A stretch of 64,000 bases of DNA from Limnochordia bacterium (GCA_050945315.1 JBMNSS010000001.1:1620-65619); one strand, 5' to 3'. Numbered from the stretch's first letter, positions 3,132 through 37,186 are shown. Program-made: numbers and translations. Notes: generated from the sequence alone by a model not told the origin.

Positions 3132-4898
3132 TTATCCAACTCGCGGAGGCATCAGAACGTAACTACGGTCTTTGTACTCCCGGTGCAAGAGGCGATGAGC
3201 TTCGGCAGAGTTGGGCTCCCCAAGACACTTCTCGTATAGCATCTTGATTTCCGGGTTCTCGTGCGAACGCCGTCGCGGCAGGTTCTTGTCAATCATATAG
3301 AGACTGTTCATCAGTCGATCCAGTGGCCACCCCTCGCCATAGGGCTGCCCGCCGCCGTTGATACAGCCTCCCGGACAAGCCATGACCTCGACCAGATGGT
3401 ACTCCTCCCAACCACCTTGGGCGAAGAAATTGCGAACGTTACGTAATCCGCTCAGCACCGCCACCTTGATCGTGATTCCGGCCACATCAACTTCGGTAGT
3501 CTTCACACCTTCCAGACCCCGAACCTCTTGGAAATCGGGATCGGCCAGTTCCTCATCTGTCACCATTTTATAGGCCGTACGCAATGCAGCCTCCGCCACA
3601 CCGCCGCTGGCTCCGAAGATTACCGCGGCCCCCGTGTAATCTCCGAGCACTCGATCGAATGGCATGGGTTCCAAGCTGGCCAAGTCGATGTACTCACGTT
3701 TGAACATCCGAATGAGTTCGCGGGTGGTCAGCACCACATTGACATCCCCGGGCGATACCTCGTTCAACTCCCATTTCTTGGCTGTACAGGGCATGAAAGA
3801 GACGACGAAAGAGTCTTTCTTGCTGGCACCTGAAGCATGCGCATACTCAGAGCGTAACAGAGCGCCCATCATCATCTGCGGAGACTTACAGGTCGAAAGG
3901 TGCTGAACCCGATCCGGATAGTACTCTTCCGCGAACTTAATCCATGCCGGGCAGCAGGAGGTCACCAGTGGGAAGGGGCCTCCGCTTTTTACTCGGCCGA
4001 CAAACTCTGCTGCCTCCTCCAGAATCGTGAGGTCAGCAGTGAAGTTCGTGTCAAAGACCTTGTCGAAACCGAGTCTCTTCAGTCCGGCTACCAGCTGTCC
4101 TTCGAAGTTCGTGCCAGGATCCATGCCGAAAGCTTGGGCTACACTGACTCGAACCGCCGGAGCTATCTGAGCCACTACATGTCTGTCCGGATCGGCCAAC
4201 GCGTCGTAAACCAGACAGGTGTCATCGCGCTCTACAAGGGCGGCCGTGGGGCAAACCCGCGTGCACTGTCCGCAATTCACACACTCAGACTCGCCTACTC
4301 CGGTGCCGAAAGCCACACCGATAACGGTTTCAAAGCCACGCTTTAGAGGCGTAATAGCGGCTACTGACTGCATGTCGTCACACACAGAGACGCAACGCTG
4401 GCACAACACACACTTCTCTGCGTCACGCACCAAGGAGAAGCTTGTTTCATCGCATTTTGCCAGTTGTCGTTGACCCCGGTAGCGGCGGTCGACACCGTAT
4501 TCGGCAGCCAGATCCTGCAGTTCGCATTCACCGTTGCGCTGACAGTAGAGACAATCTTCCGGATGATTGGCCAGAATCAGCTCCAAGACTACTTTGCGGG
4601 CCTGACGAATTCTGGGTGTCTGAGTGCGAACAACCATTCCCTCTGACACCGGTTGTGTACAAGAGGCCACCAGAGTGCGGCTGCCTTCTACTTCAACCAC
4701 ACACAGACGACAGGCACCGACTTCACGCAGGCCGTCCCAGTGACATAACGTCGGTACCGACACACCCGCTTCACGCAAGGCATACAACAGACTTTGATTG
4801 GCGTCTACCTCTACATCGCGTCCATCGACATTGATTGTCACCGGTTTTCGTTGTGTCACTTGATCAGTCACCGTGGTCCCGTTTCGAACCAGTTCCAT
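3132..4898 (-). CDS. hydA: [FeFe]-hydrogenase catalytic (large) subunit with N-terminal 2Fe-2S and 4Fe-4S ferredoxin-like domains
   Basis: H-cluster signatures TSCCPAW, FMPCTAKKWE and VEVMACPGGCINGGGQP, plus N-terminal Cys clusters. The start is moved to Met4 (MELV), which sits 9 nt after the GGGGAGG Shine-Dalgarno. Confidence 0.9.
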   Translation of the reverse strand: MELVRNGTTVTDQVTQRKPVTINVDGRDVEVDANQSLLYALREAGVSVPTLCHWDGLREVGACRLCVVEVEGSRTLVASCTQPVSEGMVVRTQTPRIRQARKVVLELILANHPEDCLYCQRNGECELQDLAAEYGVDRRYRGQRQLAKCDETSFSLVRDAEKCVLCQRCVSVCDDMQSVAAITPLKRGFETVIGVAFGTGVGESECVNCGQCTRVCPTAALVERDDTCLVYDALADPDRHVVAQIAPAVRVSVAQAFGMDPGTNFEGQLVAGLKRLGFDKVFDTNFTADLTILEEAAEFVGRVKSGGPFPLVTSCCPAWIKFAEEYYPDRVQHLSTCKSPQMMMGALLRSEYAHASGASKKDSFVVSFMPCTAKKWELNEVSPGDVNVVLTTRELIRMFKREYIDLASLEPMPFDRVLGDYTGAAVIFGASGGVAEAALRTAYKMVTDEELADPDFQEVRGLEGVKTTEVDVAGITIKVAVLSGLRNVRNFFAQGGWEEYHLVEVMACPGGCINGGGQPYGEGWPLDRLMNSLYMIDKNLPRRRSHENPEIKMLYEKCLGEPNSAEAHRLLHREYKDRSYVLMPPRVG

Positions 4899-4956
4899 AA
4901 AAGGCATCCTCCCCAGACCTGAAGATCACCCTAAACCCTGGTTTTTTCAACTCACG

Positions 4957-6900
4957 TCAGCCGGCGAGAGTTGTCTGAATACTACGACCCGTGATCGCAC
5001 CAAAGCTACAGACATCAGCACAATTGCCGCACCGGACACAAAGCTCTTGATCGATCACGTGTGGTTGACGTCTTTCGCCGCTGATGGCATCCGACGGACA
5101 CTCGCTCTTGCAGAGGCCGCAGCCGGTGCACTTCTCCGCGTCAATCACGTACGTCAGGAATTGTTTACATTGAGCGGCGGGACATATCTGATCGAGCAAG
5201 TGGGCTCGGTATTCATTCTCGAAGTGCTGCAGAGTCGATAGCACCGGATTCGGGGCCGTCTGACCCAGACCGCAGGCCGAGGTGTCTTTGATCACAGCCG
5301 CCAGTTCACGCAAAGCAGCCAAGAATCCCTCCGGATCAAAGGGTTCGTCCATGCCCAGCATGACTCGGATTTCAGTGGGAATATTCTCCGCTTCGGCATC
5401 GATCACGCGCTGGGGTGTGATAACCCGCTCAAGCATCTCATAAAGCCTTGTTGTCCCTTCTCTGCAGGGAGTGCATCGCCCACAAGACTCCGATTTTACG
5501 AAGCTCAAAAAGAACCGAGCGACCTCCACCATGCAGGTCTGGTCGTCCATAACCACAAGACCGCCTGAGCCCATCATCGCTCCGACCTTCAGCAAGGAGT
5601 CGTAATCGATGGGAGTGTCCAGGAGTCTGGCAGGTATACATCCACCGGAGGGGCCGCCTATTTGTGCCGCCTTGAATTCACGATTGTTGGCTACGCCGCC
5701 GCCCAGGTCATAGACGATCTCTCTCAAAGTAATCCCCATCGGTACTTCGATCAGGCCGCTGTTTTTCACTTTACCTGTCAATGAGAAGACCTTCGTCCCT
5801 TTGCTGCGCTCCGTGCCCACACCGGCAAACCATTCAGGCCCACGCGCAATGATATCCGGGACATTGGCCAAGGTCTCGACGTTGTTGATCAGTGTAGGGA
5901 ATCCCCAAAGCCCTTTGGACGACGGGAACGGTGGTTTGGGGCGGGGAATGCCTCGTTGGCCTTCGACGGAAGCCAGGAGTGCTGTCTCTTCGCCACAGAC
6001 GAACGCTCCGGCACCCATCTTAAGTTCAATGCTAAAGCTGAAGCCTGAACCCATGATGTTCTCGCCCAGGTAGCCGGCATTCTTCATCTGCTCAATGGCA
6101 TTCTTCAGTCTGGCGATCGCCAAGGGGTATTCGGCCCGGACGTATAGGTAGCCCTTTTGAGCCCCGATCGCATAGCCGGCAAGCAGCATGCCTTCCAAGA
6201 CGCGATGCGGATCTCCCTCCAGAAGACTGCGGTCCATGAACGCTCCCGGGTCGCCCTCATCGGCATTGCAGACAACGTATTTCTTCTCAGCTTTTTCCGC
6301 TGCAGTGAACTGCCACTTAAGGCCGGTGGGAAAACCTGCTCCGCCGCGTCCACGCAGTTGCGAGGCTTTCAACTGATCAATGACCCATTGCGTAGAATTC
6401 CCGACTGCCTTACGCAGGGCTTCATAGCCGCCCTCGGCAACGTATTCCTCCATGCTTTCAGGATCAATCCTGCCGCAATTGGCTAAGACACGCCGGCACT
6501 GCTTTGACAGAAAGGGCAGCTCCTCCATTGGAGGCACGGGCATTTGCTTGGCTTGTGCCTTGGGTTCGGGTTCGATCAAAGCCGTCATAGGCTCTTCTCC
6601 CAAAGCAGTTCCCAACAACATCTCGCCGGGAATGATCCCCTGACCCACATAGGAATCGATAATACGTATGAGGCCTTTCTTATCTACATTGCCGAAGGAC
6701 ACCCGGGAGAGTCCGGGAAGACGTACGTCCAGGATCGGTTCGCGTTCACAATAGCCCATGCATCCGACTGTCTTGACTTCAGCGTCCAGTCCACGACTCA
6801 CTATTTCAACCTGAAGTTGTTTGAGAATCTCATCCGCACCGGCAGCCAAGCCGCAGGTGCCCGCTCCGACATAGAAGACAATGCGACTCCCCTTTGACAT
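4957..6900 (-). CDS. hydB: NuoF-like flavoprotein subunit (FMN/NAD(P)H, 4Fe-4S) of multimeric [FeFe] hydrogenase
   Basis: GRGGAGFPTGLKW NADH/FMN-binding motif; N-terminal thioredoxin-like 2Fe-2S domain; C-terminal 2x CxxCxxCxxxCP ferredoxin. The ATG overlaps the hydC stop (TAATG). Confidence 0.9.
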   Translation of the reverse strand: MSKGSRIVFYVGAGTCGLAAGADEILKQLQVEIVSRGLDAEVKTVGCMGYCEREPILDVRLPGLSRVSFGNVDKKGLIRIIDSYVGQGIIPGEMLLGTALGEEPMTALIEPEPKAQAKQMPVPPMEELPFLSKQCRRVLANCGRIDPESMEEYVAEGGYEALRKAVGNSTQWVIDQLKASQLRGRGGAGFPTGLKWQFTAAEKAEKKYVVCNADEGDPGAFMDRSLLEGDPHRVLEGMLLAGYAIGAQKGYLYVRAEYPLAIARLKNAIEQMKNAGYLGENIMGSGFSFSIELKMGAGAFVCGEETALLASVEGQRGIPRPKPPFPSSKGLWGFPTLINNVETLANVPDIIARGPEWFAGVGTERSKGTKVFSLTGKVKNSGLIEVPMGITLREIVYDLGGGVANNREFKAAQIGGPSGGCIPARLLDTPIDYDSLLKVGAMMGSGGLVVMDDQTCMVEVARFFLSFVKSESCGRCTPCREGTTRLYEMLERVITPQRVIDAEAENIPTEIRVMLGMDEPFDPEGFLAALRELAAVIKDTSACGLGQTAPNPVLSTLQHFENEYRAHLLDQICPAAQCKQFLTYVIDAEKCTGCGLCKSECPSDAISGERRQPHVIDQELCVRCGNCADVCSFGAITGRSIQTTLAG

Positions 6901-7352
6901 TATCGCCGCCTCCGATACGAGTTAAGAATGCGTCTCAGCTCTTTGGGTGTGACTCGACCATGTACAGTATCATCGATGACAATGGCTGGGGCCATGCTGC
7001 AGGCTCCCAGACAAGCAACTACCTCAAGAGAGAACAAGCCGTCTTCGGTGGACTCACCTGGTTTTACGTTCAACTCGGTTTGGATGCGTTCGAGGAGATT
7101 GCCGGCGCCTTTGACGTGGCAGGCCGTGCCGTCACAGACCTTGATAGTGTGTTTTCCGGGGGGGCGAAGGTGGAAATGGTTGTAGAACGTGGCTACACCC
7201 ATGACCTGTGCAGGCGACAACCCCGTCTCAGCGGCCACCTCGGCGATGCGTTCGGCGGGTAGATAACCTTCCTCCTCTTGAATAGAGTGCAACTTTTCAA
7301 TAAGAGGTGCTCGCCGTTCAGCAGCCTTCATATCCAATTGGATATTCATCAT
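6900..7352 (-). CDS. hydC: NuoE-like 2Fe-2S subunit of multimeric [FeFe] hydrogenase
   Basis: 150 aa. CDGTACHVKGAGNLLERI...VVACLGACSMAPAIVIDD is the NuoE/24-kDa-family 2Fe-2S motif; a GAGGAGG Shine-Dalgarno precedes the start. Confidence 0.85.
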   Translation of the reverse strand: MMNIQLDMKAAERRAPLIEKLHSIQEEEGYLPAERIAEVAAETGLSPAQVMGVATFYNHFHLRPPGKHTIKVCDGTACHVKGAGNLLERIQTELNVKPGESTEDGLFSLEVVACLGACSMAPAIVIDDTVHGRVTPKELRRILNSYRRRR

Positions 7353-7505: not shown

Positions 7506-7874
7506 TCATTCAGCATGATGTCGGCCTGGCTCTGTCACCGAACACACCATCATGTGAACAACCTTCCGCAATACCCAATCCAGCTGTTCCAGAAACCCCT
7601 GATCTGTAGGCTCTGTCTCGTCAAGCTGTGCTAAGACGGCCTCGATACACCTTTGCATAGTACTAAAGTGTCTATTCTCCGCCAGTGGTGATTCTTCCTG
7701 TAAAAGACCAGCATCTATTTCCTCTTCATGTGCGAGATCTCTGTCCGCGGAGTACGCTGGCCAGGGGCCCGGTCCGTGTCGGGCTCGCATTCTCTCCTTC
7801 CATAGCCTGTAACAGTCCGGGCAGAGCCCCGGTACCGGAAACCGATTCTCACGATGGCAATGTGGACACTTCAT
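7506..7874 (-). CDS. hypothetical Zn-ribbon protein
   Basis: 122 aa. N-terminal CPHC-x12-CPDC; GGAGG Shine-Dalgarno 7 nt before the ATG; no recognisable family. Confidence 0.5.
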   Translation of the reverse strand: MKCPHCHRENRFPVPGLCPDCYRLWKERMRARHGPGPWPAYSADRDLAHEEEIDAGLLQEESPLAENRHFSTMQRCIEAVLAQLDETEPTDQGFLEQLDWVLRKVVHMMVCSVTEPGRHHAE

Positions 7875-7947: not shown

Positions 7948-10900
7948 TCAGAAACCAGCACCGATGCCCCAATACAGACGCCATGGCTGTGTGCCGTCCA
8001 AAGAACGGGCCAGTCCCAGACGAAGATCGCCTCTGGTTAATCCGTATCCGAGGGTCATGGTCGTTCGGGCCTCGGCTCCGACGGCGGAGACCGTTTTGAA
8101 GTCTTCGGCCTTATTTCCCGCGATGCCGCTGTCACAGAACAATGCCCAGGACACACCGTCAACAAAAACGGGGCTGTCTTGGACACCACGTTGGATAGGA
8201 AAGGCCATATACTCGACCTCGATGCTGATTTTCCCGGCCTCCTGGCCTCGAACACAGGCTACGGGAAGACCGCGAATGGCCAGATCACCTTGTGAGCCTC
8301 CTAAGAAGAAACTATCTTCGGCGGTGCTGGCTACCGCACTTAAGTCTATCAACAGGCGCAACCGCTCCGACAGTCGCTGGTTCACGGCAAGAAACAGACC
8401 GCCAGCCGTGTGGCCTCCGCCCAAACCCTGCACACCGAAAAGCTGAAGATCGCTCACCCGCTGTTGGTGAGCGTCTCCTCCGACGCCCTGAAAGCGGATT
8501 CCTAATCCGAGCTCCGAGTGAAAGCCTTCATCTTTGTAGGCACCCAGCCACACAACTCCGCTGCTCGATAAGAGAAGACCGGGCTCATTCCAGGCAATGT
8601 AAAACTCCCCTGCATTCTCGGTCCATACTTCATTCACTTCTCCATCGCTGTGCAGGAAGGGTACCGGTGAGATCATCTTCTCTACTCTTGCCGGCTGAGG
8701 CGTCGACGCGTCATTGACTCGTGACAGAACACTGCCGGAAATGCTGAGGCCCAACACGGGTCCGTTGCCCAACACATCTGAGCGGTACTCGTACTCCGTG
8801 CGATAAGAGGCAGTCTCATCCCCAAAAGAAATACCCAATGCATAGGCATGCTGCCCCAGGGCGTCAGTACCTGATGTCGAACCGCCTGTCAGCCACTGGC
8901 CTTCCAGACCGCCCCACAAAGGAAGCCAATAACGTGGGGTAAGGCTCTCTGAAGCACGGTAAGGTCGGATGATGAAGTCCTGTGGATCGACCGGACGTGC
9001 CAGTTCTTGCCAAGCTTCTTTGTCTGAGTTCTCAAGACGGCTCTTGGGCACGAACGACCACGCGGCAGCATCATCGGACGGCAAGCGAATCACCCACTCG
9101 CTGATATCGATGTCTGCGGGGGCGACGATTTCCGGCTCAGCGGGCGCCGGCGGCGGACATAACACCCACTCTTCCGGGTTCAAGGGCAAGGTCGCCATCC
9201 GGTATCCATCTGCAGAATAGGCCGAGACGAGCAGACTGCCACCATCCGGAGAGACGGAGGGAGCAAAGAATCCATATAAGGCGCGAGTAACTTGATACTG
9301 ACTGCCATCGAGAACGTCATAGGCATGAATATTGTAGATCCCTGAGTGATCAGAGGAAAAAAACAGATAGCGCCCGTCAGGAGACCAGGACGGATCCAGT
9401 TTAACCGCCGCATCATGCGTCAACCTCACAGGCGCGGCGACTGGCACCGGGGTTTCCTGAAGCATTAGCGGCAATAAGAAGAGTTCAATATCACCTGAGT
9501 GAGTACGTCCTACAAAGGCCAGATTCTCCCCGTCAGGAGACCAGGCCAAGGAGAACACCTGATCCGGTTGTTCATCGCGCGGTCGGTCGATCTCGGGGCT
9601 CCACAACACCATCGGAGTCCCTTTTTCGAGGGCGGTTAGCAGGATTAGTGACCTGTCCTCCCGACGGGAAATGAAAGCGATCCATTCACCGTCCGGCGAC
9701 ACGGTCGGAGCGTAAGCTCGGTAACCGTGGGTCAGTCTCTCTTCCTTGCCCGACCGTATATTATAGATATAAAGATCGCTCGTCAGACCTCCTTGATGGT
9801 AATCCATCTTGCCATAGACCACACCCTGACCATCAGGTGTCCATGAAAGACCGCCTGAACGGGTGACCAGTCCGTTCACCAGCTTGCGCTCTTTGTCGCC
9901 GCCAACTGTCTGGCGCAGGCGTAACGACGGCAGTACGTTCCCCCCGGAACCGTAGACAATCGCCTTTCCGTCCGGGCTCCATACGGGCCACAAAACCATC
10001 TCTCCGGTGGCCGGTATTGTCTCCACTGCGGTGATAGAGCCCACAGCCTCTCGTTGCTGTGAATAGTGTTCAAAAAGGTCGTGTTGCCAATTCAGCCACA
10101 AATCGTCAAAAGGCACCTGAAACACTTCCTTGATGACTCCATTGGCACCAAGTGATTGTCGGCTGTGCAGGCGAAAGATCTCGTTGACGGAATCCTCCCC
10201 GTAATTGCGGGCCAGATAATCAATAAACGAGTAGCCGTAGAGGTAGACTGCCGGCCCGGGATTCCATCCGCTGAGTCTGTAGTTGCCAATGACTTGATCC
10301 CACGGCGGGATACGATTCTCCAGAACCGCCGCCCGGAGAAACATGTCATAGAAGGCACCGTCTCCCCTGCCATTACCCATCAATCCTTCAGCAAAGACAG
10401 CATGACCTTCAAGGAGAGCGTGGCCGAGAAGGCTGTTGGGTGTGCCGGCCCACGGCACTTTTCCGAAAAGCTTGCGGGCTCGGTCAGCGCCTTCTGAATG
10501 CATGTCGAGTTGAAGCACATGAGCATATTCATGCAGCAGCAGTTGTTCAAACCATTCAGAATGAGTCGGGGTCAATCCGGTGTCGTAGGAGATGGTATCC
10601 GGCAATACGGGGTGAATCGTAATGTGGTTGTAGGGCGTCACACGGGCGAAAGCGTTTGCCGCGTCTGTGATATCGGCAATGACCACATGGGTCTTCTCCT
10701 CCGGAAAGTACTGCATTTTAGGTACCAGGTTACGATGGGCGTCTTCCGCCGCTATAGCCACGCGGCGAGCAAGCTGCTCTTGCCCGGGGGGGAAGTGAAT
10801 CAGAAAGTGCGGACTCTCCAGGGTGAGCCATCCGCGGGCCGGCAAAGCCGGTGGTGGCATGGCCCGTGGCAATACCGACTCGGTTGCCATCGCTGTCACA

Positions 10901-11085
10901 GCTAAACACCAGATACAACATACCAGTGCCACGAAACACAATACATGACACCGAACACGGACTCTAAGGTGCGGATGGGAAGCCCCTGTCCACTTGTCGG
11001 CTCCTAAGTCAGCCCCTTTTTTCCTACAACTTGCGTTAGGCACCAGGTTCATCGCCATCGGCCCACCTCTCATCGCGACGGTCAC
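7948..11085 (-). CDS. large secreted multidomain protein: HExxH metallopeptidase-like domain + six PD40/TolB-type beta-propeller repeats + Gly/aromatic-rich beta-rich C-terminal domain
   Basis: Hydrophobic signal/anchor LCFVALVCCIWCLAVTAMA; LLHEYAHVLQ...EGHAVFAEG (HExxH plus downstream E). Repeated SPDG/WSPDG/WTPDG motifs (SPDGKAIVYG, WTPDGQGVVYG, SPDGEWIAFISRR, WSPDGENLAFVGR, WSPDGRYLFFSSD, SPDGGSLLVSAY). The C-terminal ~350 aa shows alternating beta-strand patterning, a VRGQ motif and ends ...YWGIGAGF. The GTG start overlaps the ADH stop (GTGA), so the true start may be internal. Confidence 0.7.
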   Translation of the reverse strand: MTVAMRGGPMAMNLVPNASCRKKGADLGADKWTGASHPHLRVRVRCHVLCFVALVCCIWCLAVTAMATESVLPRAMPPPALPARGWLTLESPHFLIHFPPGQEQLARRVAIAAEDAHRNLVPKMQYFPEEKTHVVIADITDAANAFARVTPYNHITIHPVLPDTISYDTGLTPTHSEWFEQLLLHEYAHVLQLDMHSEGADRARKLFGKVPWAGTPNSLLGHALLEGHAVFAEGLMGNGRGDGAFYDMFLRAAVLENRIPPWDQVIGNYRLSGWNPGPAVYLYGYSFIDYLARNYGEDSVNEIFRLHSRQSLGANGVIKEVFQVPFDDLWLNWQHDLFEHYSQQREAVGSITAVETIPATGEMVLWPVWSPDGKAIVYGSGGNVLPSLRLRQTVGGDKERKLVNGLVTRSGGLSWTPDGQGVVYGKMDYHQGGLTSDLYIYNIRSGKEERLTHGYRAYAPTVSPDGEWIAFISRREDRSLILLTALEKGTPMVLWSPEIDRPRDEQPDQVFSLAWSPDGENLAFVGRTHSGDIELFLLPLMLQETPVPVAAPVRLTHDAAVKLDPSWSPDGRYLFFSSDHSGIYNIHAYDVLDGSQYQVTRALYGFFAPSVSPDGGSLLVSAYSADGYRMATLPLNPEEWVLCPPPAPAEPEIVAPADIDISEWVIRLPSDDAAAWSFVPKSRLENSDKEAWQELARPVDPQDFIIRPYRASESLTPRYWLPLWGGLEGQWLTGGSTSGTDALGQHAYALGISFGDETASYRTEYEYRSDVLGNGPVLGLSISGSVLSRVNDASTPQPARVEKMISPVPFLHSDGEVNEVWTENAGEFYIAWNEPGLLLSSSGVVWLGAYKDEGFHSELGLGIRFQGVGGDAHQQRVSDLQLFGVQGLGGGHTAGGLFLAVNQRLSERLRLLIDLSAVASTAEDSFFLGGSQGDLAIRGLPVACVRGQEAGKISIEVEYMAFPIQRGVQDSPVFVDGVSWALFCDSGIAGNKAEDFKTVSAVGAEARTTMTLGYGLTRGDLRLGLARSLDGTQPWRLYWGIGAGF

Positions 11086-12230
11086 AAGAGCTCAGTCAAC
11101 AATGACTCTGCATCAGACTGGCTCACTGACCGGGGATTGGCTCGGGTAGAACCGGAAGGCAGCGCAGCTGCAGCCAGCTCCGTAATATGCTCAGGAATCA
11201 TACCTGCATCCCGCAGATTGGCGGGAATCTCCATCTTTTCGTTGAGTTGCTCTATGAAATCAATCAAAGACTCGGCAGCACGTGGATCGTCCCTATCGGC
11301 CAATCCAATGGCCGCGGCCAACTCTGCGTACCCCTGTCGGGCAACCGCCAGGTTGAACCGCATGACGTGGGGAAGCAAGATCGCGCATGCTCTGCCGTGA
11401 GGAATCCCATAGCGAATTCCCACCGGATGAGCAAGACCGTGCACCAGCCCCAATCTGGCATTGGTCAAGGCCACACCGGCTAAGTAGCTGCCTACAGCCG
11501 TGTTGCGGCGCGCTGTTAAGTCTCGACCATTGCGATAGACCGTCATCAAGCTTTCGCTAAGCAGACTGGTGGCCTGACGAGATAGGGCTTGTGTCACGGG
11601 GGTGGCTCCGAGCGAGACATGAGATTCTATGGCTTGGGTCAAGGCGTCCATGCCGGAAGCGGCGGTGACGTGCGGAGGGGCTGTCACATAAAGCTTCGGA
11701 TCAATCAGCACCGCCTGTGCATACCATCGTTCGCAACGCATGCTTTGCTTGAGGCCCCTGACGGGGTCACTGAGTACGCTGACGTGAGTGGCCTCCGAAC
11801 CCGTGCCGGCAGTGGTCGGCACAGCAATCCAGGGCAAAGCCTGCACATCACGAGGCCCCCGATATAGAGCCTCTTCCACTACTGACTCAGGGTCTGCGGT
11901 GTGGTGAAAAAGCCCGGCGATACACTTGCCCATGTCTAAGACACTGCCGCCGCCGATGGCTATCAGCGATGAACAAGAAGCCGCGCGAGCCTGGGCTAAA
12001 CCTCGGGCACACTCACTCAAAGTGGGTTCGCCGCCAGGCCCTTCGATGATCATCGCTGCAATACCCGCTTCTTGCAGGTTTTTTCGCACCTGGTCGGCGA
12101 TACCGTTAGAGATAGTATGGCGTCCCGCCACCAATGCAGCGACAGGGCCCAACGGTCGCACCAGCTTATCAAGCGTAGCTAGGGCATCTTCACCGACCTG
12201 CAGTTTTGGGATGAACGAATGGTACCACAC
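11082..12230 (-). CDS. iron-containing (group III) alcohol dehydrogenase
   Basis: AIGGGSVLDMGKCIAG and downstream His-rich metal motifs. The start is trimmed to a GTG (12228-12230) preceded by GGAGGGG, which avoids overlap with the upstream MscS-like gene; this gives 382 aa. Confidence 0.85.
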   Translation of the reverse strand: MWYHSFIPKLQVGEDALATLDKLVRPLGPVAALVAGRHTISNGIADQVRKNLQEAGIAAMIIEGPGGEPTLSECARGLAQARAASCSSLIAIGGGSVLDMGKCIAGLFHHTADPESVVEEALYRGPRDVQALPWIAVPTTAGTGSEATHVSVLSDPVRGLKQSMRCERWYAQAVLIDPKLYVTAPPHVTAASGMDALTQAIESHVSLGATPVTQALSRQATSLLSESLMTVYRNGRDLTARRNTAVGSYLAGVALTNARLGLVHGLAHPVGIRYGIPHGRACAILLPHVMRFNLAVARQGYAELAAAIGLADRDDPRAAESLIDFIEQLNEKMEIPANLRDAGMIPEHITELAAAALPSGSTRANPRSVSQSDAESLLTELL

Positions 12231-12255
12231 GATACTACCCCTCCGCTCCGGTGGC

Positions 12256-12813
12256 TTAGCTTCTGCCTTCTTCTTTTTGACGAGCCTTTGGAGGGCCCTT
12301 CTCAACAATAGTATAGGTCGCCGCATCGATATTGCGGTTCGGTATGGCATAAATCAGGCCGTCTTTGTCTTTGACCTTTGTCTTGCGCATAGACAGACGG
12401 ATGATCTCACCCTCCACACCCGCCGCACGGACCCTGGCCCCAATGACAAAGTCGTCGTCTGACAACAGGTAGATGCCTGCCAGTAGATCCTGGGATACCG
12501 TGTTAAGTCCGGTGGCCAGGGCCATGGCGACCAAAGCCACTGACCCGCCCAGAGCCAGCGAGACCTGAGTCAAACCCAAAGCGTTGAGTGTTGCTGAGAT
12601 CCCGATGACCCAACCGACGAAGCTGACACTCGAAGAAAGCAATGATTTTGCGGTAGCTTCCAAGTGAGCCAAGCTTGCGGCCGCGGCGAAGACCCGTTTC
12701 ATTAATCTGATGAGAATATAGGTAGCAACTAGGGTAATAAGAGCGCCCGGAATTCGGACAACATAACTGACTGTCTGTTGCAGCAGTTCGTTTGTCCAAC
12801 TCATATCTGACAT
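12256..12813 (-). CDS. short MscS-family mechanosensitive channel protein
   Basis: 185 aa. TM helices plus the MscS TM3/beta-domain core (LGLTQVSLALGGSVALVAMALATG...VIGARVRAAGVEGEIIRLSMRKTKVKDKDGLIYAIPN). GGAGG Shine-Dalgarno before the ATG. Shorter than canonical MscS. Confidence 0.7.
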   Translation of the reverse strand: MSDMSWTNELLQQTVSYVVRIPGALITLVATYILIRLMKRVFAAAASLAHLEATAKSLLSSSVSFVGWVIGISATLNALGLTQVSLALGGSVALVAMALATGLNTVSQDLLAGIYLLSDDDFVIGARVRAAGVEGEIIRLSMRKTKVKDKDGLIYAIPNRNIDAATYTIVEKGPPKARQKEEGRS

Positions 12814-26033: not shown

Positions 26034-27308
26034 TTAGCGACCTACTCCTTTGAGAAAGTAGACCGTGTCCAGGTGAACTCGCTCAGCAACATCCACAATG
26101 TCTTTTTTCGTTACACGCTTCAGGCGGACGATCAACTCCTCGGTTGTCTCTTTGACACCCTCCATTGACCCGCTCAGGTGCGTTATCATTTGCGCCAGAG
26201 GGTTATCTTGTGTCAGCAGAGCCTGTGCGATAAGCCTACTGCGTGTCGCATTCATCTCATCATCGGAGATGTCCCCTTGGCGGATGGCATCCACCTGCTT
26301 CAGCATTATCTCTAACGCTTGATCGTAATTTTTGGGATCAATACCGGCATATGCCAGCACATACCCCTTGTTTGCGTTGTAGCCTGAGCTCGCCTGATAG
26401 GCCAGGCTGGCCTTTTCACGCACATTGACAAACAGTTTTGAGTGCACGAAACCACCCAGAACACCGTTCAAAAAGTACATGGCACAGCGTTCAGCGTCCG
26501 AATAGGTAATGTCCGTACGGAAGCCGAGCACCAACCATCCCTGCCCCATCACTTCTTCATCAACGACTGTGCGAACCTGTGCTCTTCCGGGAAGGACTAC
26601 AGTCCTGGGCAGCGCTTTGGGAGCTCTCGTGGGTAAGGAAAAGCCACCTACCACTTTTTTCAGTTCATCGCGCTCCACATCGCCCACTATATAGATATCG
26701 ATAGGGGCCTCACGAATCTGTCTTGTGTGATTGCGCAGGAGAATCTGTGGTGTTAATTCCCGTACCTGTTCTTCCGTACCGAGTTCATGGAGCCGGAACG
26801 GTTCATCGCCGTACATTTCCTCGATACAGCGCAATATGGCCCATCTGGCCTTAACATTGATCAAAGAACGAATCCGTCCCACCTGCAATTGCTTCTCTTG
26901 CTCCACGTACTCGCCGGCCAACCCCCCGTTTTCTATGACGGGCGACAGAATCACTTCTCGTAATAGCCGCAAACCCTGACTCAAGATAGGCGTACCTACA
27001 TAGCGATCACCGGGGAGGTTGAGCAGAAACCAAGAAATCTGGCGATCCCCACGCTTTTGTACGCCCGTTCCCAGATGGGCTCCGTATAACGAGGCAAGTT
27101 CTCGCTCTAAAGCCATGGCTGTGGGCCATAGAGTGTTTCCCCGTCGCAGCACCCGGGGGAGAATACCCATCGCGGCCACATTCTCCGGTGAAAGCTCATT
27201 GTGGAAAAAGACAGCCGCGCTCGTACGTTTGAAGGTGGGCACAGCGTGCACAAAGAGCCGAACCTCCGGCCCCAGCGATATTTGTTGGAACCCTTGAGTC
27301 ATGCTCAT
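26034..27308 (-). CDS. M16-family peptidase, non-catalytic partner subunit
   Basis: Insulinase-fold pattern but no HxxEH; translationally coupled to the upstream M16 gene, whose stop is 2 nt before this start. Confidence 0.8.
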   Translation of the reverse strand: MSMTQGFQQISLGPEVRLFVHAVPTFKRTSAAVFFHNELSPENVAAMGILPRVLRRGNTLWPTAMALERELASLYGAHLGTGVQKRGDRQISWFLLNLPGDRYVGTPILSQGLRLLREVILSPVIENGGLAGEYVEQEKQLQVGRIRSLINVKARWAILRCIEEMYGDEPFRLHELGTEEQVRELTPQILLRNHTRQIREAPIDIYIVGDVERDELKKVVGGFSLPTRAPKALPRTVVLPGRAQVRTVVDEEVMGQGWLVLGFRTDITYSDAERCAMYFLNGVLGGFVHSKLFVNVREKASLAYQASSGYNANKGYVLAYAGIDPKNYDQALEIMLKQVDAIRQGDISDDEMNATRSRLIAQALLTQDNPLAQMITHLSGSMEGVKETTEELIVRLKRVTKKDIVDVAERVHLDTVYFLKGVGR

Positions 27309-27309
27309 A

Positions 27310-28608
27310 TCAGTGCCCTCCTTTCAGCGGCTCCACAATGGAAACCACACGATTATCTTCTCCGATGAGCTGCTCCAGACATTTCTGGGCATCCTCAAGA
27401 CGAACCTCATCAAGCAGCGTTCTCACATCCATAAGATCTAACTCGTTAAAACGATGAGTGATGTAAACACCGGCCAATTGCTCCGGATCATCTAGTAAAG
27501 CGGAAAAGGAACCTATTTCTTGGCGACGAACGGTCTCGAAGACTTCGGCCTGCAGACCTTCTTGGCAAGCTCGCCGCAGATTGGCGGTGATTTCCGTCAC
27601 AAAAGCGTCGACATCTTCTGTTTCGCCGCTGATCCATACATAACCGATACTCCGATACGACGAGTATCCGAAACGAAAATCTTCCGTGACGATGCCTTTT
27701 TCGTACAACTGCCAATAACCCGAGTTTACTTTTCCCAAGACCGCGCTCAAAGCGAGATCAGCGGCGATAAGCTGTTTATGATAGTCAGGGCTGTCAGCCG
27801 ATAAGGTGCCTTTGAATCCCATCATCACGAGAGGTCGGGAGACCTTGAGCTCAATTCTCGTCTCCGGATGGACTACGCTGTCTGGTTCCGCGGGAATAAC
27901 TCGGCTAATCGGTCCCCGTGGTGTGTAGTCTCTTGCCGCGAGATCCTTTTCCACCATTGAAAGCACCTCGGCAAAATCCAGCTCCCCGACCACAACGAGC
28001 ATCATGTTACTGGGATGGTAAAATGTATCGTGGCATTTGTAAAGAAGCTCCTTGTTGATACGGGCAATGGAATCGGGCGAGCCAATGGTTCGTATTCTGG
28101 CAGGATGCACATGGAACATGGATTCCATGAAGTTGTAGTAGACCATTCGCGAGGGACTGTCGAGTCCCGTTTGAATCTCTTGCCCGATGATCCCTTGCTC
28201 TTTGGCGACGCTTTCATCGGTGAAATACGGATTCTGCACGAAGTGGAGCAGCAGACTGAGTCCTTCGTTGAAGCGCTCTACCGTGGTAAAGTGGTACACC
28301 GTGTAATACGATCCCGTATAGGCGTTTGTAGTCATACCCATTTGCGAGAAACGCTGTGATACATCGGTGCCATCGGGTTCCTCGAACATCTTATGTTCGA
28401 GGAAGTGAGCAATACCGTCAGGGACATTCGTCGGTTGTGACTGTCCGGGTGTTATGAAGGTCGAATCCATGCCACCGTAATTTGTGGCCAGGGCGGCAAA
28501 TTTCTGTGCAAAGCCGGGTTTAGGAAGCAAGACCACGGTCAGCCCCGAAGGCAACCTGCGCTCCAGTACTTCCTGCCCCATCACCATCCTTTTCACATTC
28601 ACAAGCAA
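27310..28608 (-). CDS. M16-family zinc peptidase, catalytic subunit
   Basis: HFLEHKMFEE (HxxEH inverted zincin motif) with the downstream E ligand region. Confidence 0.85.
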   Translation of the reverse strand: MLVNVKRMVMGQEVLERRLPSGLTVVLLPKPGFAQKFAALATNYGGMDSTFITPGQSQPTNVPDGIAHFLEHKMFEEPDGTDVSQRFSQMGMTTNAYTGSYYTVYHFTTVERFNEGLSLLLHFVQNPYFTDESVAKEQGIIGQEIQTGLDSPSRMVYYNFMESMFHVHPARIRTIGSPDSIARINKELLYKCHDTFYHPSNMMLVVVGELDFAEVLSMVEKDLAARDYTPRGPISRVIPAEPDSVVHPETRIELKVSRPLVMMGFKGTLSADSPDYHKQLIAADLALSAVLGKVNSGYWQLYEKGIVTEDFRFGYSSYRSIGYVWISGETEDVDAFVTEITANLRRACQEGLQAEVFETVRRQEIGSFSALLDDPEQLAGVYITHRFNELDLMDVRTLLDEVRLEDAQKCLEQLIGEDNRVVSIVEPLKGGH

Positions 28609-33088: not shown

Positions 33089-33264
33089 ATATCCCCCTAT
33101 TCTCGCTCTGGACTCATGTCTATTCTTTCGTCAATCCTATCTGGGCTCCTTGTTATTCACGCCAAGCAAAGCGAAGCATCTCACTCAGGGGCAGGAATAC
33201 TCCGCTGTTTCAGCGAACAGGAGTCACGAATAAAGCCCTATTGTCTAGGAGGCTTGAGTCGTCT

Positions 33265-34002
33265 ATGGTGCTCATGTCGAATAACAGGCGGACACCCTTC
33301 GCTTGCCACATTGCTTTTCTCCTCTGTGTGCTTATCATCGCCATTAGTATGCCTTTGCTTGCTGCGACGCGGGCACCGGCTACAAGCAAGGCTATGCCTA
33401 CCCGAAATGCTCCGAGCATAGCCGCCATATTACATAACGTTGAGAACTGTTTTTCCGAAATCAAGGATCTCACCGGTGTCGTCGACCTTGAGCAGTACAG
33501 CACTGATGGTTCGGTCGTTCAAGTTCAGACGACGGTTCAGGCTGTATTACCCAGCTTATTGCGCTTGGACTTCGTAAAGCCGGAGACTTTTGCGGGCACG
33601 TTTTACGTCCTCGACCGTAACACAAATCAGATAATGCAGTATTCACCCATCACCGAGCAGGTGATCGTCTCCTCCATAGAGCAGACACTGTCCGAGCGAT
33701 TTGTGCCTACAACTGTAGAGCAGTTGTTCAGCCTTCCCTCACCTGAAGACTACAACCTTAGCGTGCTTTCCACCGAACAGCATTTGGTCGGTGTCTTGGC
33801 CAAGGCCAAGAACGATCCCGCGTCTCCTTACTTCCATTTTTGGATCGACCAAGACACCTGGATAGTCTCGAGAATGCACGTTTTTGAAGCTCAGGGGCAA
33901 CCCCTTTTCACGATTCGGCTGCGTGATGTCAAGATCAACCGCAGTCTTGTCGAGGCTCAACTGAAGAGACTGCCTGCCGGAGCCGTCACGGTCTATCGTT
34001 GA
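33265..34002 (+). CDS. secreted LolA-like/DUF4367-like protein
   Basis: Signal peptide HIAFLLCVLIIAISMPLLAA, then an all-beta LolA-like pattern; AGGAGG Shine-Dalgarno 9 nt before the ATG at 33265. Confidence 0.5.
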   Translation: MVLMSNNRRTPFACHIAFLLCVLIIAISMPLLAATRAPATSKAMPTRNAPSIAAILHNVENCFSEIKDLTGVVDLEQYSTDGSVVQVQTTVQAVLPSLLRLDFVKPETFAGTFYVLDRNTNQIMQYSPITEQVIVSSIEQTLSERFVPTTVEQLFSLPSPEDYNLSVLSTEQHLVGVLAKAKNDPASPYFHFWIDQDTWIVSRMHVFEAQGQPLFTIRLRDVKINRSLVEAQLKRLPAGAVTVYR

Positions 34003-34042
34003 GTGCATAGCTGAGTACATATACGAAGGGAATCCTGCAAGG

Positions 34043-37000
34043 ATGAGCATCAGTCAAACCGTCGTTCGACGCCCAGTGGCGGTAGCCATGGGCGTTGCAG
34101 TCATTCTTCTGTTGGGTATTCTGTCGCTCACGCGTCTGGAGTTGGATCTCCTCCCCAATTTGAGCCTGCCTATCGTCGGAGTGATCACCGTATATCCGGG
34201 GGCAGCCCCGAGTGCAGTTGAAGGGGATATCACTACCCCGATGGAAGCGGCCGTGGCTACCGTCTCAGGGCTGAAATCGTTGGAAAGCTATAGCATGGAG
34301 AATGCATCCGTGATAGTGGCCAATTTTGGCTGGGGCGTGGATTCGATGCAGGCCATCAATGATATCAAGACCCAGCTGGCCACTGTGACCCATCTGTTAC
34401 CTGCTGATGCCATGGAACCTGTGGTGACCAACGTTGATCCACGTATGCTTCCCGTCATGAAGATTGGCGTCACAGGCCTTGATGATATCACAGCTCTCAC
34501 CAAAGCGGCTGAGGAGCATCTCATAGGTCGGATCGAGCAAATCCCGGGAGTGGCCAGAGTAGGCCTTGCCGCCGGAGTACGTCCTGAAATCTCCGTGTTT
34601 TTTGATACAGAAGCACTGCGAGCGAGCAACACCCCTCCGGCGATGCTCTACGAGCTTCTCAGACAGCAAAACGCTCTTATACCCGCCGGTGTCTTGGAGG
34701 ACAACAGCGTTCGCTACCATGTAAGAGTCGGCAATCCTCTAAGCAGCGTGGAAGAGATTCGCGATCTGGTTATAGGGGAGAAAAAAACGGCGGGAGTTGA
34801 GGCCGTCGGACTCGCCGCCCTTATTCCTCAGATGCTGTTTCTGAAAGACGTGGCCACTGTTGTAGAGGGAACCAGCCCACAGGAGTCCTATGCACGGGTA
34901 GACGGTGAGCCGGCTGTCATTTTACAGGTCTACAAACAATCAGGTGCGGGCAGTGTTTCCGTGTCTCGGGCTGTGCGAAGTGCATTGGCAGAGCTCAATC
35001 AAGACATGGATCACGAGATTCAGTTGTGGGTAGTGGGCGATCAATCAGAGTTCATCATAGACGCGCTGAACAACGTGAGAGATGCCGCCATAGTAGGCGC
35101 CGTGTTGGCGGTGGCGGTGCTCCTTCTGTTTCTGCGCAGTCTGCGCAGCATCCTAGTGGTAGCCATCTCTATTCCCCTGTCTATAGTGGCCGCTCTGATC
35201 ATGATGTACGCCAGTGATCTCACCCTCAACCTGCTTAGCATGGGAGGACTTGCCCTGGGCATTGGGTCCTTGGTCGACAACTCGATTGTCGTCCTTGAGA
35301 GTATAATGCGGCACCGACAACAAGGTCTGAGCGCCCAAAAAGCGGCTGAGATCGGCACCTCCAAGGTTGCTCTGGCTATATCAGCCGGAACCGTGACGAC
35401 CGTAGTGGTCTTTTTGCCCCTGGCCTTCCTGGAGTCTACCGCGGGCCGATGGTTCCGCGATACGGCCTTGACTGTCACCTTTTCTCTGCTGGCGTCTATG
35501 CTGGTGGCCGTTACCGTGGTTCCTGCCGCAGCCGGACGTTTCCTGAGAAAACCGTTGCGCCATACTGCGGACGAAACCTCCTTCGGGTGGATTGAACGGT
35601 TGAAAGAAAGGTATCTGCGAAGTCTCAGTCGGCTGCTGAATCGTCCGGTTTGGCTTTGGGCTTTGGCGTTGGTGATGGTCGTCGCCGGTTTGAGCGCTCC
35701 CCGCTATATGCCTTTGGAGCTTCTGCCTAGCGTAGACGGAGGGGCGATCAACGCCACTTTAACCATGCCGGCCGGAACGCCGATTCGAGTGACCAACGGT
35801 GTTGCCGGGCAAATCGAAAAGACCGTGACTCAAATCGAGGATGTCATCTCTGTGTGGTCTCAGTTGGGCCAAGACAGCGATGATGTCGTCCAGCTTTTCT
35901 ACGGAACCGGGCCGCATGTGGCCAAGATGCAGTTTCTCTTGCAGCCAAGAATGCAGCGGGAACGATCCATAGGAGACATCGCCGATGAGATAAGGCAAGC
36001 GGTCGAGGGAATCGACTTGTTGGGCGGTCATCTGAGTATTAGTACGGAGCGCATGACAGATGCCCTCGGTGAGGCTTTCTCTCCCGGGGTCACCATTCAG
36101 GTGAGCGGAAAGGATCTTGATGCTCTCGAAACTCAGGCCGATCGCATAGCTCAGGGCTTGAAAGATGCAGGCGGATTTACCGAGATCACTACATCGGTAG
36201 ATCAAAGGCAACCCGAGTTGCTTTTTACCGTCGACCGGACAAAAGCACTCCTGGGCAGTATGACTACCAATGTCGTAGGGATAACCCTTCGCGGGGCCTT
36301 GAGCGGTCTTGAAGCCACTCGCATACAGCGCAACGGAGAGAGCATCCCGGTTGTTTTGCGAGCAAAGCCGGAAGAAGTCGATGGCATTGAGGCCCTTCTT
36401 CAGATGTCTATCCAGGGAGTCTCGGGCACCGGACAAGATCCTGTGCCTGCGGTGCGTTTCGGGCGGGTGGCCACCGCGGAAGAGACCACAGGACCGGTGA
36501 CAATTCAGCATGTTGATCGTGTGAGAACGGTAACCGTCCACGCTCGTCTGGACGGAATAGACTTGAGTGAAGCAAAACGGAGAGTCTCGGACATCATCGA
36601 CGGTCTTGAGGTTCCTGCACAGATCGGTGTCCGTCTCGCCGGAGTTCATGATACCATCCAGGAAGCTGTAGATGAGCTCACATGGGTGCTCATGCTGGCC
36701 ATTCTGTTGGTATACATGGTAATGGCCGCTCAGTTTGAATCGCTCTTGTATCCGTTGATCGTCATGATTGCCGTTCCGCTTGGCCTGGGAGGCGGCCTTG
36801 TCTGTCTGTGGATTTCAGGTCAAAGCATTGGTGTCTCCGGGCTGATGGGCTTGATAGTCCTGACGGGTGTTGTGGTGAACAACGGCATCGTTATGGTCGA
36901 TGCGGCCAACCAGGCGCGGCGCGACGGAGCTGATCTTGATCAGGCCGTTCTCATGGCCGCCGAGCAGAGATTGCGACCGATTCTCATGACCTCCTTGACC

Positions 37001-37186
37001 ACCATCTTTGGCTTGATACCTCTTGCGTTGGGCTACGGAGAAGGGACCGAGTTGCAGAGACCATTGGCCATCGCCTATATGGGAGGAATGGTCTTTTCGA
37101 CACTGCTTACTCTGTTTCTCGTCCCCTCCGCCTATCGTCTGCTCACGCTTCGTCGGGCTGAGACTCCGAGTCAGGAGACTCTGTGA
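34043..37186 (+). CDS. RND-superfamily efflux transporter permease (AcrB/SwrC-like)
   Basis: 1047 aa with 12 TM helices, two large periplasmic loops and an AcrB-family internal repeat. Confidence 0.9.
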   Translation: MSISQTVVRRPVAVAMGVAVILLLGILSLTRLELDLLPNLSLPIVGVITVYPGAAPSAVEGDITTPMEAAVATVSGLKSLESYSMENASVIVANFGWGVDSMQAINDIKTQLATVTHLLPADAMEPVVTNVDPRMLPVMKIGVTGLDDITALTKAAEEHLIGRIEQIPGVARVGLAAGVRPEISVFFDTEALRASNTPPAMLYELLRQQNALIPAGVLEDNSVRYHVRVGNPLSSVEEIRDLVIGEKKTAGVEAVGLAALIPQMLFLKDVATVVEGTSPQESYARVDGEPAVILQVYKQSGAGSVSVSRAVRSALAELNQDMDHEIQLWVVGDQSEFIIDALNNVRDAAIVGAVLAVAVLLLFLRSLRSILVVAISIPLSIVAALIMMYASDLTLNLLSMGGLALGIGSLVDNSIVVLESIMRHRQQGLSAQKAAEIGTSKVALAISAGTVTTVVVFLPLAFLESTAGRWFRDTALTVTFSLLASMLVAVTVVPAAAGRFLRKPLRHTADETSFGWIERLKERYLRSLSRLLNRPVWLWALALVMVVAGLSAPRYMPLELLPSVDGGAINATLTMPAGTPIRVTNGVAGQIEKTVTQIEDVISVWSQLGQDSDDVVQLFYGTGPHVAKMQFLLQPRMQRERSIGDIADEIRQAVEGIDLLGGHLSISTERMTDALGEAFSPGVTIQVSGKDLDALETQADRIAQGLKDAGGFTEITTSVDQRQPELLFTVDRTKALLGSMTTNVVGITLRGALSGLEATRIQRNGESIPVVLRAKPEEVDGIEALLQMSIQGVSGTGQDPVPAVRFGRVATAEETTGPVTIQHVDRVRTVTVHARLDGIDLSEAKRRVSDIIDGLEVPAQIGVRLAGVHDTIQEAVDELTWVLMLAILLVYMVMAAQFESLLYPLIVMIAVPLGLGGGLVCLWISGQSIGVSGLMGLIVLTGVVVNNGIVMVDAANQARRDGADLDQAVLMAAEQRLRPILMTSLTTIFGLIPLALGYGEGTELQRPLAIAYMGGMVFSTLLTLFLVPSAYRLLTLRRAETPSQETL

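Follow-up and report, generated by a model that had tools for sequence, protein, structure and literature searches.

The Omp85/TpsB superfamily was split by Heinz & Lithgow in 2014 into ten subfamilies, one of them named 'WD40-like' (PMC4104836). The WD40-like set, ~62 sequences from the 2014 UniProt, includes H1XQ58, D0MEQ5, D5CSQ4, J1SNQ0, B3QRX6 and B0VIY2. Table S2 of that work records PF07676 (PD40) repeats together with PF01103, and in its Table S3 the top template for the propeller is TolB (2ivz, 2w8b), and another column, headed 'best aminopeptidase hit', names an M1 aminopeptidase (1z5h, tricorn factor F3; 4kxd; 4fgm) at ~99% confidence (PMC4104836). The main text treats the propeller only, speculating on a BamA-BamB-like platform, and accepts the POTRA-less subfamilies noNterm, Metallo and WD40-like within the superfamily (PMC4104836). 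A 2024 paper sums up the subfamilies as having 'divergent WD40 and peptidase domains'. The patatin domain of PlpD, for many years believed to be exported through its Omp85 barrel ('type Vd'), has now been shown to be periplasmic, and the authors of that work argue for a re-use of the Omp85 scaffold in new functions (PMC11116518). Here we describe a minus-strand gene in a 64,000-nucleotide stretch of DNA from a Limnochordia bacterium (GCA_050945315.1, JBMNSS010000001.1:1620-65619; 'the window'). Its product, the window protein, consists of a zinc-peptidase-like domain, a PD40/TolB-type propeller and an Omp85-type barrel.

The window protein agrees with the WD40-like subfamily in its three modules and their order, likewise without POTRA; the match was made via the published definition and templates. 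It differs from the 2014 set as a divergent Limnochordia branch whose barrel and peptidase fall under the Pfam thresholds and whose linker is longer, and Limnochordia genomes were not yet available when that set was assembled. The window protein thus belongs, as a divergent representative from Limnochordia, to a very large Omp85 subfamily that was catalogued in 2014 and is experimentally unstudied; the identification is correct and not new.

Domain architecture

The C-terminal domain is supported as an Omp85-type outer-membrane barrel by the Pfam matches of its homologues, by profile alignment, by the modelled fold and by conserved motifs. A full-length AlphaFold2 (AF2) model, made from a 54-sequence alignment [mean predicted local distance difference test score (pLDDT) 86, predicted template-modelling score (pTM) 0.87], has 16 strands between residues 712 and 1033. 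Conservation is given below as counts in these 54 sequences, and residue numbers (H176, E177, H180, E217 and so on) are those of the 1036-aa protein that starts at the ATG. A Foldseek search with the model retrieves TamA (8us3, E = 1.2e-6; 4c00) and the BamA of D. radiodurans (8xnb, E = 3.7e-6, TM-score 0.55 normalised to the target). The Omp85 Pfam model PF01103 is passed by distant full-length homologues (P0028, 61.9 bits; P0064, 65.1 bits; cutoff 24), and the match in P0028 spans residues 656-965, corresponding to positions 18-325 of the 325 positions of the Pfam model. The C-terminal profile of the close subfamily aligns with P0028 residues 603-965 in hhalign at a probability of 99.3% (E = 1.6e-20). 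BLASTP with the C-terminal 356 aa alone finds P0029 (E = 8e-10) and P0037 (E = 2e-7), both aligned end to end. A C-terminal β-barrel ending in Phe had been suggested in an earlier note made from the DNA alone, and these data identify it as a 16-stranded Omp85 barrel.

Two signature motifs of Omp85 barrels are recognizable. The loop-6 columns, [LVI]-R-G-[YFL], have R in 50 and G in 48 of the 54 sequences and are aligned to FLRGY of P0028; the motif is within a 28-residue loop (912-939) between modelled strands 11 and 12. The earlier note had flagged a VRG motif, but this VRGQ (8242-8253) is not conserved, being AKGQ in P0003, and the conserved motif is the IRGL located eight residues upstream. 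The second signature, FCDSG, lies on modelled strand 13 (residues 964-981). In BamA and TamA the FxDxG of strand 13 is the partner of the Arg in loop 6, and by analogy FCDSG probably pairs with the loop-6 Arg of the window protein. Of the 54 sequences, 27 end in F and another 10 in L or Y. A third motif, which is specific to the family, precedes and forms strand 1; its consensus R-P-Y-x5-L-x-P-R-Y-W-x-P is nearly invariant, and the hairpin that follows carries D732 (about 8863-8865, minus strand), invariant in 54/54. The prolines flanking strand 1 are unexpected for the seam pairing of Omp85 barrels with substrate strands. In the model the strand register is that of canonical Omp85 proteins, which would put the start of strand 1 at the periplasmic face.

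The linker that connects propeller and barrel is 30-96 aa long across the family, and at ~70 aa in the window protein it compares with a family median of ~38. Neither the window protein nor nine homologues have a Pfam match to POTRA, and no β-α-α-β-β unit lies between propeller and barrel in the model.

The N-terminal domain, modelled separately (AF2, pLDDT 88), has the thermolysin-like catalytic-domain fold that places it in the clan MA(E) gluzincins. The assignment was settled by structure; a sequence search of the Protein Data Bank (PDB) with the N-domain profile gives marginal gluzincin matches (E = 0.02-6). In that profile search the (W)xxEGxAxY helix is aligned to WLNEGF of M1 aminopeptidase, and E217, aligned to the Glu of the M1 NEG motif, is the presumed third zinc ligand in a HExxH-x36-E arrangement. 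Y272 is a candidate for the transition-state-stabilizing Tyr known from the M1 and M4 gluzincins. The window protein has no Peptidase_MA_2 (PF13485) match at the Pfam gathering score of 32.4 bits; distant full-length homologues pass this cutoff (P0064, 41.2; P0069, 45.0; P0108, 33.1 bits). The nearest structural relatives at low root-mean-square deviation are the M30 peptidase lugdulysin and the M9 collagenases, which are secreted endopeptidases, and the architecture of the N-domain appears to lean towards that of an endopeptidase. Membership of the M1 aminopeptidases was considered and rejected: G[AGT]MEN is found in 0/54 members, and E217 follows the second His at a distance of 36 residues, not x18. 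A spacing of 18-19 residues between HExxH and Glu is typical of M1 and M4. The N-domain is a clan-MA gluzincin outside every characterized peptidase family and, because the catalytic set is fully conserved, a putatively active enzyme.

The propeller is the one module that Pfam and NCBIfam scans of the window protein recognize (PD40, E = 2.8e-24). Six xS/TPDG repeats, at residues 360, 406, 453, 506, 558 and 602, accompany six four-stranded blades in the AF2 model (assigned by DSSP). TolB structures are the best matches to the propeller both by sequence and by fold (E = 3e-11 for the fold), and a phmmer search of the PDB with the window protein returns TolB and S9 propellers only. The protein is no TolB equivalog: it scores 97 bits against a TIGR02800 cutoff of 343, the match covering only the propeller part (model positions 234-355), there is no TolB_N Pfam match in the window protein and the TolB N-terminal domain is absent.

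The 1045-aa open reading frame (ORF) that the earlier note described does exist and all of its three modules are confirmed, but translation most probably begins at the ATG at 11058, Met10 of the listed ORF, and less likely at the GTG at 11085. A GAGGTG Shine-Dalgarno sequence is found 5 nt upstream of this ATG; the homologues P0002 and P0003 (81% and 66% identical) are called from the equivalent Met [M(V/A)MNLVPN / MANLIPS]; and at the syntenic locus in Limnochordia 27 nt separate the Fe-ADH stop from the start of the gene. With this start the protein has 1036 aa, a spacer of 23 nt follows the ADH stop, and the two genes probably do not meet in the GTGA overlap, which makes the translational coupling to the upstream Fe-ADH gene proposed in the earlier note doubtful. 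The signal-peptide region is a helix in the AF2 model, with low confidence at its start, and 49 of the 54 family members have a hydrophobic N-terminal core of this kind. A lipoprotein reading was rejected, a lipobox being present in 1/54 members and not conserved. In the NCBI record of the identical protein, ACOYEP_00040 (983 aa, 'hypothetical protein'), the gene begins only at residue 63 of the ORF (region 10897-11058, minus strand); this start is inside the hydrophobic core of the signal peptide, so that the export signal is missing from the annotated protein. Unlike ACOYEP_00040, the gene calls of the 81%- and 66%-identical homologues include the signal peptide.

Features of the gene and its product, with positions counted from the first nucleotide of the window.
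Feature	Position	Strand	Basis or remarks
ORF as listed, 1045 aa from the GTG at 11085	7948..11085	minus	ORF list
Most probable coding sequence of the peptidase-propeller-Omp85 protein, 1036 aa plus stop	7948..11058	minus	ATG with Shine-Dalgarno sequence, homologue starts, synteny
Signal peptide: long N-region, core VLCFVALVCCIWCLAVTAMA, likely AMA/TE cleavage, no lipobox	10885..11058	minus	Read from sequence; cleavage site predicted
Clan-MA gluzincin, thermolysin-like zinc-metallopeptidase-like domain, residues ~75-340	10039..10836	minus	
HEYAH zinc-binding/catalytic motif (H176, E177, H180)	10519..10533	minus	Invariant in 54/54 aligned homologues, many phyla
EGHAVFAE helix, E217 presumed third zinc ligand	10387..10410	minus	E217, G218 and A220 invariant in 54/54; E224 in 51/54
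YLYG motif (Y272, G275)	10234..10245	minus	Both residues invariant in 54/54
Six-bladed PD40/TolB-type β-propeller, residues ~345-626	9181..10026	minus	Pfam PD40, TolB matches, repeats, model
Pro/Ala/Glu-rich linker, largely disordered in the model, then three short helices	8974..9180	minus	pLDDT <50 for residues 640-671
Omp85-superfamily 16-stranded outer-membrane β-barrel, residues ~696-1036	7951..8973	minus	Model, Foldseek, hhalign, BLASTP
Pre-strand-1 motif RPY..SL.PRYWLP, family-specific	8914..8967	minus	P708 in 53/54, W711 in 45/54, P713 in 49/54
Omp85 loop-6 motif AIRGL / IRGL (I928-R929-G930-L931), counterpart of BamA VRGF/Y	8266..8277	minus	Column conservation, DSSP
FCDSG, Omp85 strand-13 F-x-D-x-G motif (F974, D976, G978)	8125..8139	minus	F in 46/54, D/E in 51/54, G/A in 52/54
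C-terminal β-signal-like strand YWGIGAGF, alternating hydrophobics, terminal Phe	7951..7974	minus	Sequence

Family and host

The domain order, which the earlier note had called unusual, belongs to a large and widespread family. Searched against 1.84 billion representatives at 50% identity, the profile of the N-domain matches 14,747 proteins at E <= 1e-3 and 3,527 at E <= 1e-30; most of the top matches are 930-1060 aa long, carry the module at residues ~20-300 and share the same architecture. At least 558 loci are present in GTDB species genomes. The lineages among the loci listed include Limnochordia, Halanaerobiaceae, unclassified Bacillota metagenome-assembled genomes (MAGs), Nitrospirota, Myxococcota, Aminicenantes and Desulfuromonadales, with others; the named lineages among these loci are all diderm, and one locus is labelled only 'uncultured Clostridia bacterium'. 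Two tandem paralogues of 967 and 956 aa are found on the same strand in a 6.5-Mb metagenomic genome (locus L004, 7001-9904 and 9989-12859), near an M48 peptidase gene.

The host is a Limnochordia bacterium, no classical Clostridium as the 'Clostridia-like' impression of the window had suggested, as the best database match of the protein, at 100% identity, belongs to a Limnochordia MAG; the next matches are also from Limnochordia. A lipopolysaccharide-containing outer membrane occurs in three Bacillota lineages, Limnochordia, Negativicutes and Halanaerobiales (PMC11456536; bioRxiv 10.1101/2021.05.31.446380). The outer-membrane gene cluster is present in 46/46 Limnochordia genomes analysed by Taib et al. 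(2020), as cited in PMC11456536, and transmission electron microscopy makes the outer membrane visible in the cultured Limnochordia Geochorda and Carboxydochorda (PMC11456536). For the present MAG a diderm Bacillota host is therefore supported on the basis of this class-level literature. Of the two branches left by the earlier note, the diderm Bacillota-like lineage is the right one, and a novel cell-surface protease or sensor of a monoderm is not needed; neither a soluble β-sandwich nor lack of an outer membrane, the two findings that were to speak against its reading, was encountered. The window itself is core chromosome, with ribosomal-protein operons and genes for SecY, Adk, Map, RpoA, DnaE, a class-A penicillin-binding protein, an AcrB-type pump and HydABC.

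Proposed function and alternatives

We consider it moderately probable that the window protein is an outer-membrane-anchored, periplasm-facing metallopeptidase with a substrate-selecting propeller. After export by Sec, the ~340-residue POTRA-less barrel would insert in the outer membrane and act mainly as an anchor or scaffold. We infer a periplasmic location for the N-terminal modules because canonical Omp85 topology places the start of strand 1 on that side; peptidase and propeller would then be held on the flexible linker at the periplasmic face. Like the PD40 propellers of S9 peptidases and tricorn, the propeller may recruit or filter oligopeptides or unfolded polypeptides, which the zinc domain would cleave at the inner face of the outer membrane. 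Such an activity could serve the quality control or turnover of envelope proteins (BepA/DegP-like) or the trimming of imported peptides.

Several observations weigh against this proposal. The window protein has no PF01103 match, which leaves its link to Omp85 transitive or structural, and a sequence search of the PDB with the C-terminal profile of the close subfamily gives 0 matches even at E = 10. All-against-all clustering of the flanking ORFs at 60 loci finds no neighbour common across phyla, and so no hint of a substrate or partner. We found no experimental study of any family member in the literature. The conserved barrel interior and pre-strand-1 motifs suggest that the barrel may do more than anchor. 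The two null searches with Pfam and the PDB would also fit a C-terminus that is not an outer-membrane protein at all, but the soluble β-rich domain of a protease associated with the cell wall of a Clostridia-like monoderm, as would the fact that the 64-kb window holds no BamA, LptD or TolC-type gene nor any other outer-membrane biogenesis gene. That explanation is extremely improbable, since the structural, profile and motif evidence is all of the Omp85 type, Limnochordia are diderm and, among the loci listed, the named ones are only diderm.

A non-proteolytic factor of outer-membrane biogenesis or tethering, fused in the manner of BamA-BamB or resembling TolB, would use the HExxH domain as a binding module and the barrel to insert or translocate clients. 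Heinz & Lithgow speculated on a BamA-BamB-like fusion; TolB is the best propeller match, the barrel has kept the loop-6 RG and strand-13 FxDxG of BamA and TamA, and the invariant pre-strand-1 motif, together with D732, gives a hint of a function centred on the barrel. We regard such a role as unlikely: all characterized Omp85 insertases and translocases have the POTRA domains that this protein lacks, and its TolB score of 97 against 343 bits goes with the missing TolB N-domain. Moreover, the family is present in both Pal-type (Gracilicutes) and OmpM-type (diderm Firmicutes) groups, bam, tam and tol genes are not conserved neighbours at the 60 loci, and catalytic residues that are invariant in 54/54 sequences are hard to explain for a mere binding module. 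The conserved loop-6/strand-13 lock, which keeps Omp85 barrels plugged, speaks against surface display or secretion, a type Vd-like route by which the barrel would export its own peptidase-propeller passenger as an extracellular protease for acquiring nutrients or as a surface sensor. In favour of this route, which the earlier note had in mind, Heinz & Lithgow raised it for enzyme-Omp85 fusions by analogy with PlpD, the host lineages include proteolytic and predatory organisms, and M30 lugdulysin and the M9 collagenases are themselves secreted. The PlpD precedent has since been overturned: the enzyme of PlpD is periplasmic, and for a folded domain of ~31 kDa passage across a closed Omp85 barrel is considered energetically unfavourable (PMC11116518). 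The passenger here would measure ~570 residues and contain a closed six-bladed propeller. With POTRA missing, the lock conserved and a strand register that puts the N-terminus in the periplasm, export of the enzyme seems quite unlikely.

More speculative still, and in our view a long shot, is a self-contained quality-control machine of the outer membrane, in which the POTRA-less barrel would capture stalled or misfolded β-barrel or lipoprotein clients at its seam and the propeller would feed them to the fused protease. If true, this would be surveillance of the BAM-plus-BepA kind in one polypeptide, present in diderms of both Terrabacteria and Gracilicutes and possibly ancient.

The identification of the three modules corrects the annotation: the gene is entered at NCBI as 'hypothetical' and with its start truncated, and the names given to relatives vary between 'TolB family', 'BamA/TamA family' and 'peptidase S9'. 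For the diderm Bacillota (Limnochordia, Halanaerobiales) the protein is a further outer-membrane marker. The family comprises thousands of clusters at 50% identity in both major diderm groups, with a perfectly conserved zinc site, and neither Pfam nor NCBIfam has a curated model for its full length. After the re-interpretation of PlpD it appears to be another re-use of the Omp85 scaffold for holding a periplasmic enzyme at the outer membrane. Its substrates, once established, would fill a real gap in envelope proteostasis but would not overturn current understanding.

Neighbouring genes and comparison with known systems

In Limnochordia the gene lies in a syntenic order of BipA, a TIM-barrel protein, MscS, Fe-ADH, the peptidase-propeller-Omp85 gene, a small ORF and HydABC. 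Because the neighbours differ in other phyla, the adjacency of Fe-ADH and hydrogenase is lineage synteny and reflects no functional link. Promoter and terminator scans around the gene gave counts at or below shuffle expectation. As listed, the Fe-ADH ORF (11082-12350, minus strand, 422 aa) reaches into the upstream MscS-like ORF (12256-12813) and exceeds by ~40 aa the length of its homologues at syntenic loci (382-384 aa); translation probably starts downstream of 12350. Between the main gene and the hydrogenase genes is a 122-aa ORF (7506-7874, minus strand) with a zinc-ribbon-like N-terminus (CPHC...CPDC) and no Pfam match, and a 137-aa gene, also without Pfam match, has the same position at syntenic Limnochordia loci (L001, 13386-13799). 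Immediately downstream, on the minus strand (3132-7352), follows the trimeric HydABC-type hydrogenase operon (NuoE-like, NuoF-like and [FeFe]-hydrogenase large subunits), which is syntenic in other Limnochordia and of a type typical of electron-bifurcating hydrogenases.

Elsewhere in the window, the plus strand (33241-37186) carries an AcrB/RND-family transporter of 1047 aa (741 bits), preceded by a 253-aa ORF without Pfam match that may encode a divergent membrane-fusion protein, and no gene for a TolC-like outer-membrane factor adjoins the transporter gene. A single 719-aa ORF (46664-48823, minus strand), beside truA, ribosomal and rpoA genes, contains two ABC_tran stretches and a CbiQ/EcfT-type transmembrane domain. 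The genes ecfA, ecfA' and ecfT are normally separate, and this ORF may be a gene fusion or an artefact of assembly or frame. The product of a 434-aa ORF (44576-45880, minus strand) matches PF04734, the N-terminal domain of neutral/alkaline ceramidase, only marginally (32.4 bits, cutoff 32.1); the family is uncommon in bacteria. Two adjacent genes on the minus strand (26034-28608) encode M16 (insulinase/pitrilysin-like) peptidases, in one of which only the inactive C-terminal-type domain was detected.

Among the characterized proteins, PlpD also has an enzyme N-terminal to a 16-stranded Omp85 barrel, and there the enzyme is periplasmic and the barrel is a scaffold. It differs in that its enzyme is a patatin phospholipase, in having one POTRA domain and in forming dimers, whereas the window protein has a zinc-peptidase-like domain and a propeller. 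With no patatin or POTRA Pfam match, the window protein shares with type Vd/PlpD only the logic of an enzyme on an Omp85 barrel. The resemblance to BamA and TamA is confined to the barrel and consists of the 16 strands (Foldseek E ~1e-6), the loop-6 RG between strands 11 and 12, the strand-13 FxDxG and the C-terminal aromatic residue; BamA and TamA are insertases that have POTRA domains, multiple ones in the essential BamA, and the window protein has instead the enzyme, the propeller and the Pro-rich pre-strand-1 motif.

TolB is similar in its six-bladed PD40 propeller, but its N-terminal α/β domain is without counterpart in the window protein, and the family is present in lineages reported to lack Pal; Pal marks the Gracilicutes, and diderm Firmicutes use OmpM (bioRxiv 10.1101/2021.05.31.446380). 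From the clan MA gluzincins (M30 lugdulysin/hyicolysin, M1 and M9) the N-terminal domain is set apart by ~10-17% identity to any solved enzyme and by the 36-residue spacing. The S9 oligopeptidases and tricorn (with factor F3) are soluble cytoplasmic or periplasmic proteins, with serine catalytic domains in S9 and tricorn, whereas a zinc gluzincin is joined here to an outer-membrane barrel. BepA, finally, is a soluble protein composed of an M48 peptidase and TPR repeats that docks on BAM; in the window protein a peptidase of a different family is fused to the Omp85 barrel itself.

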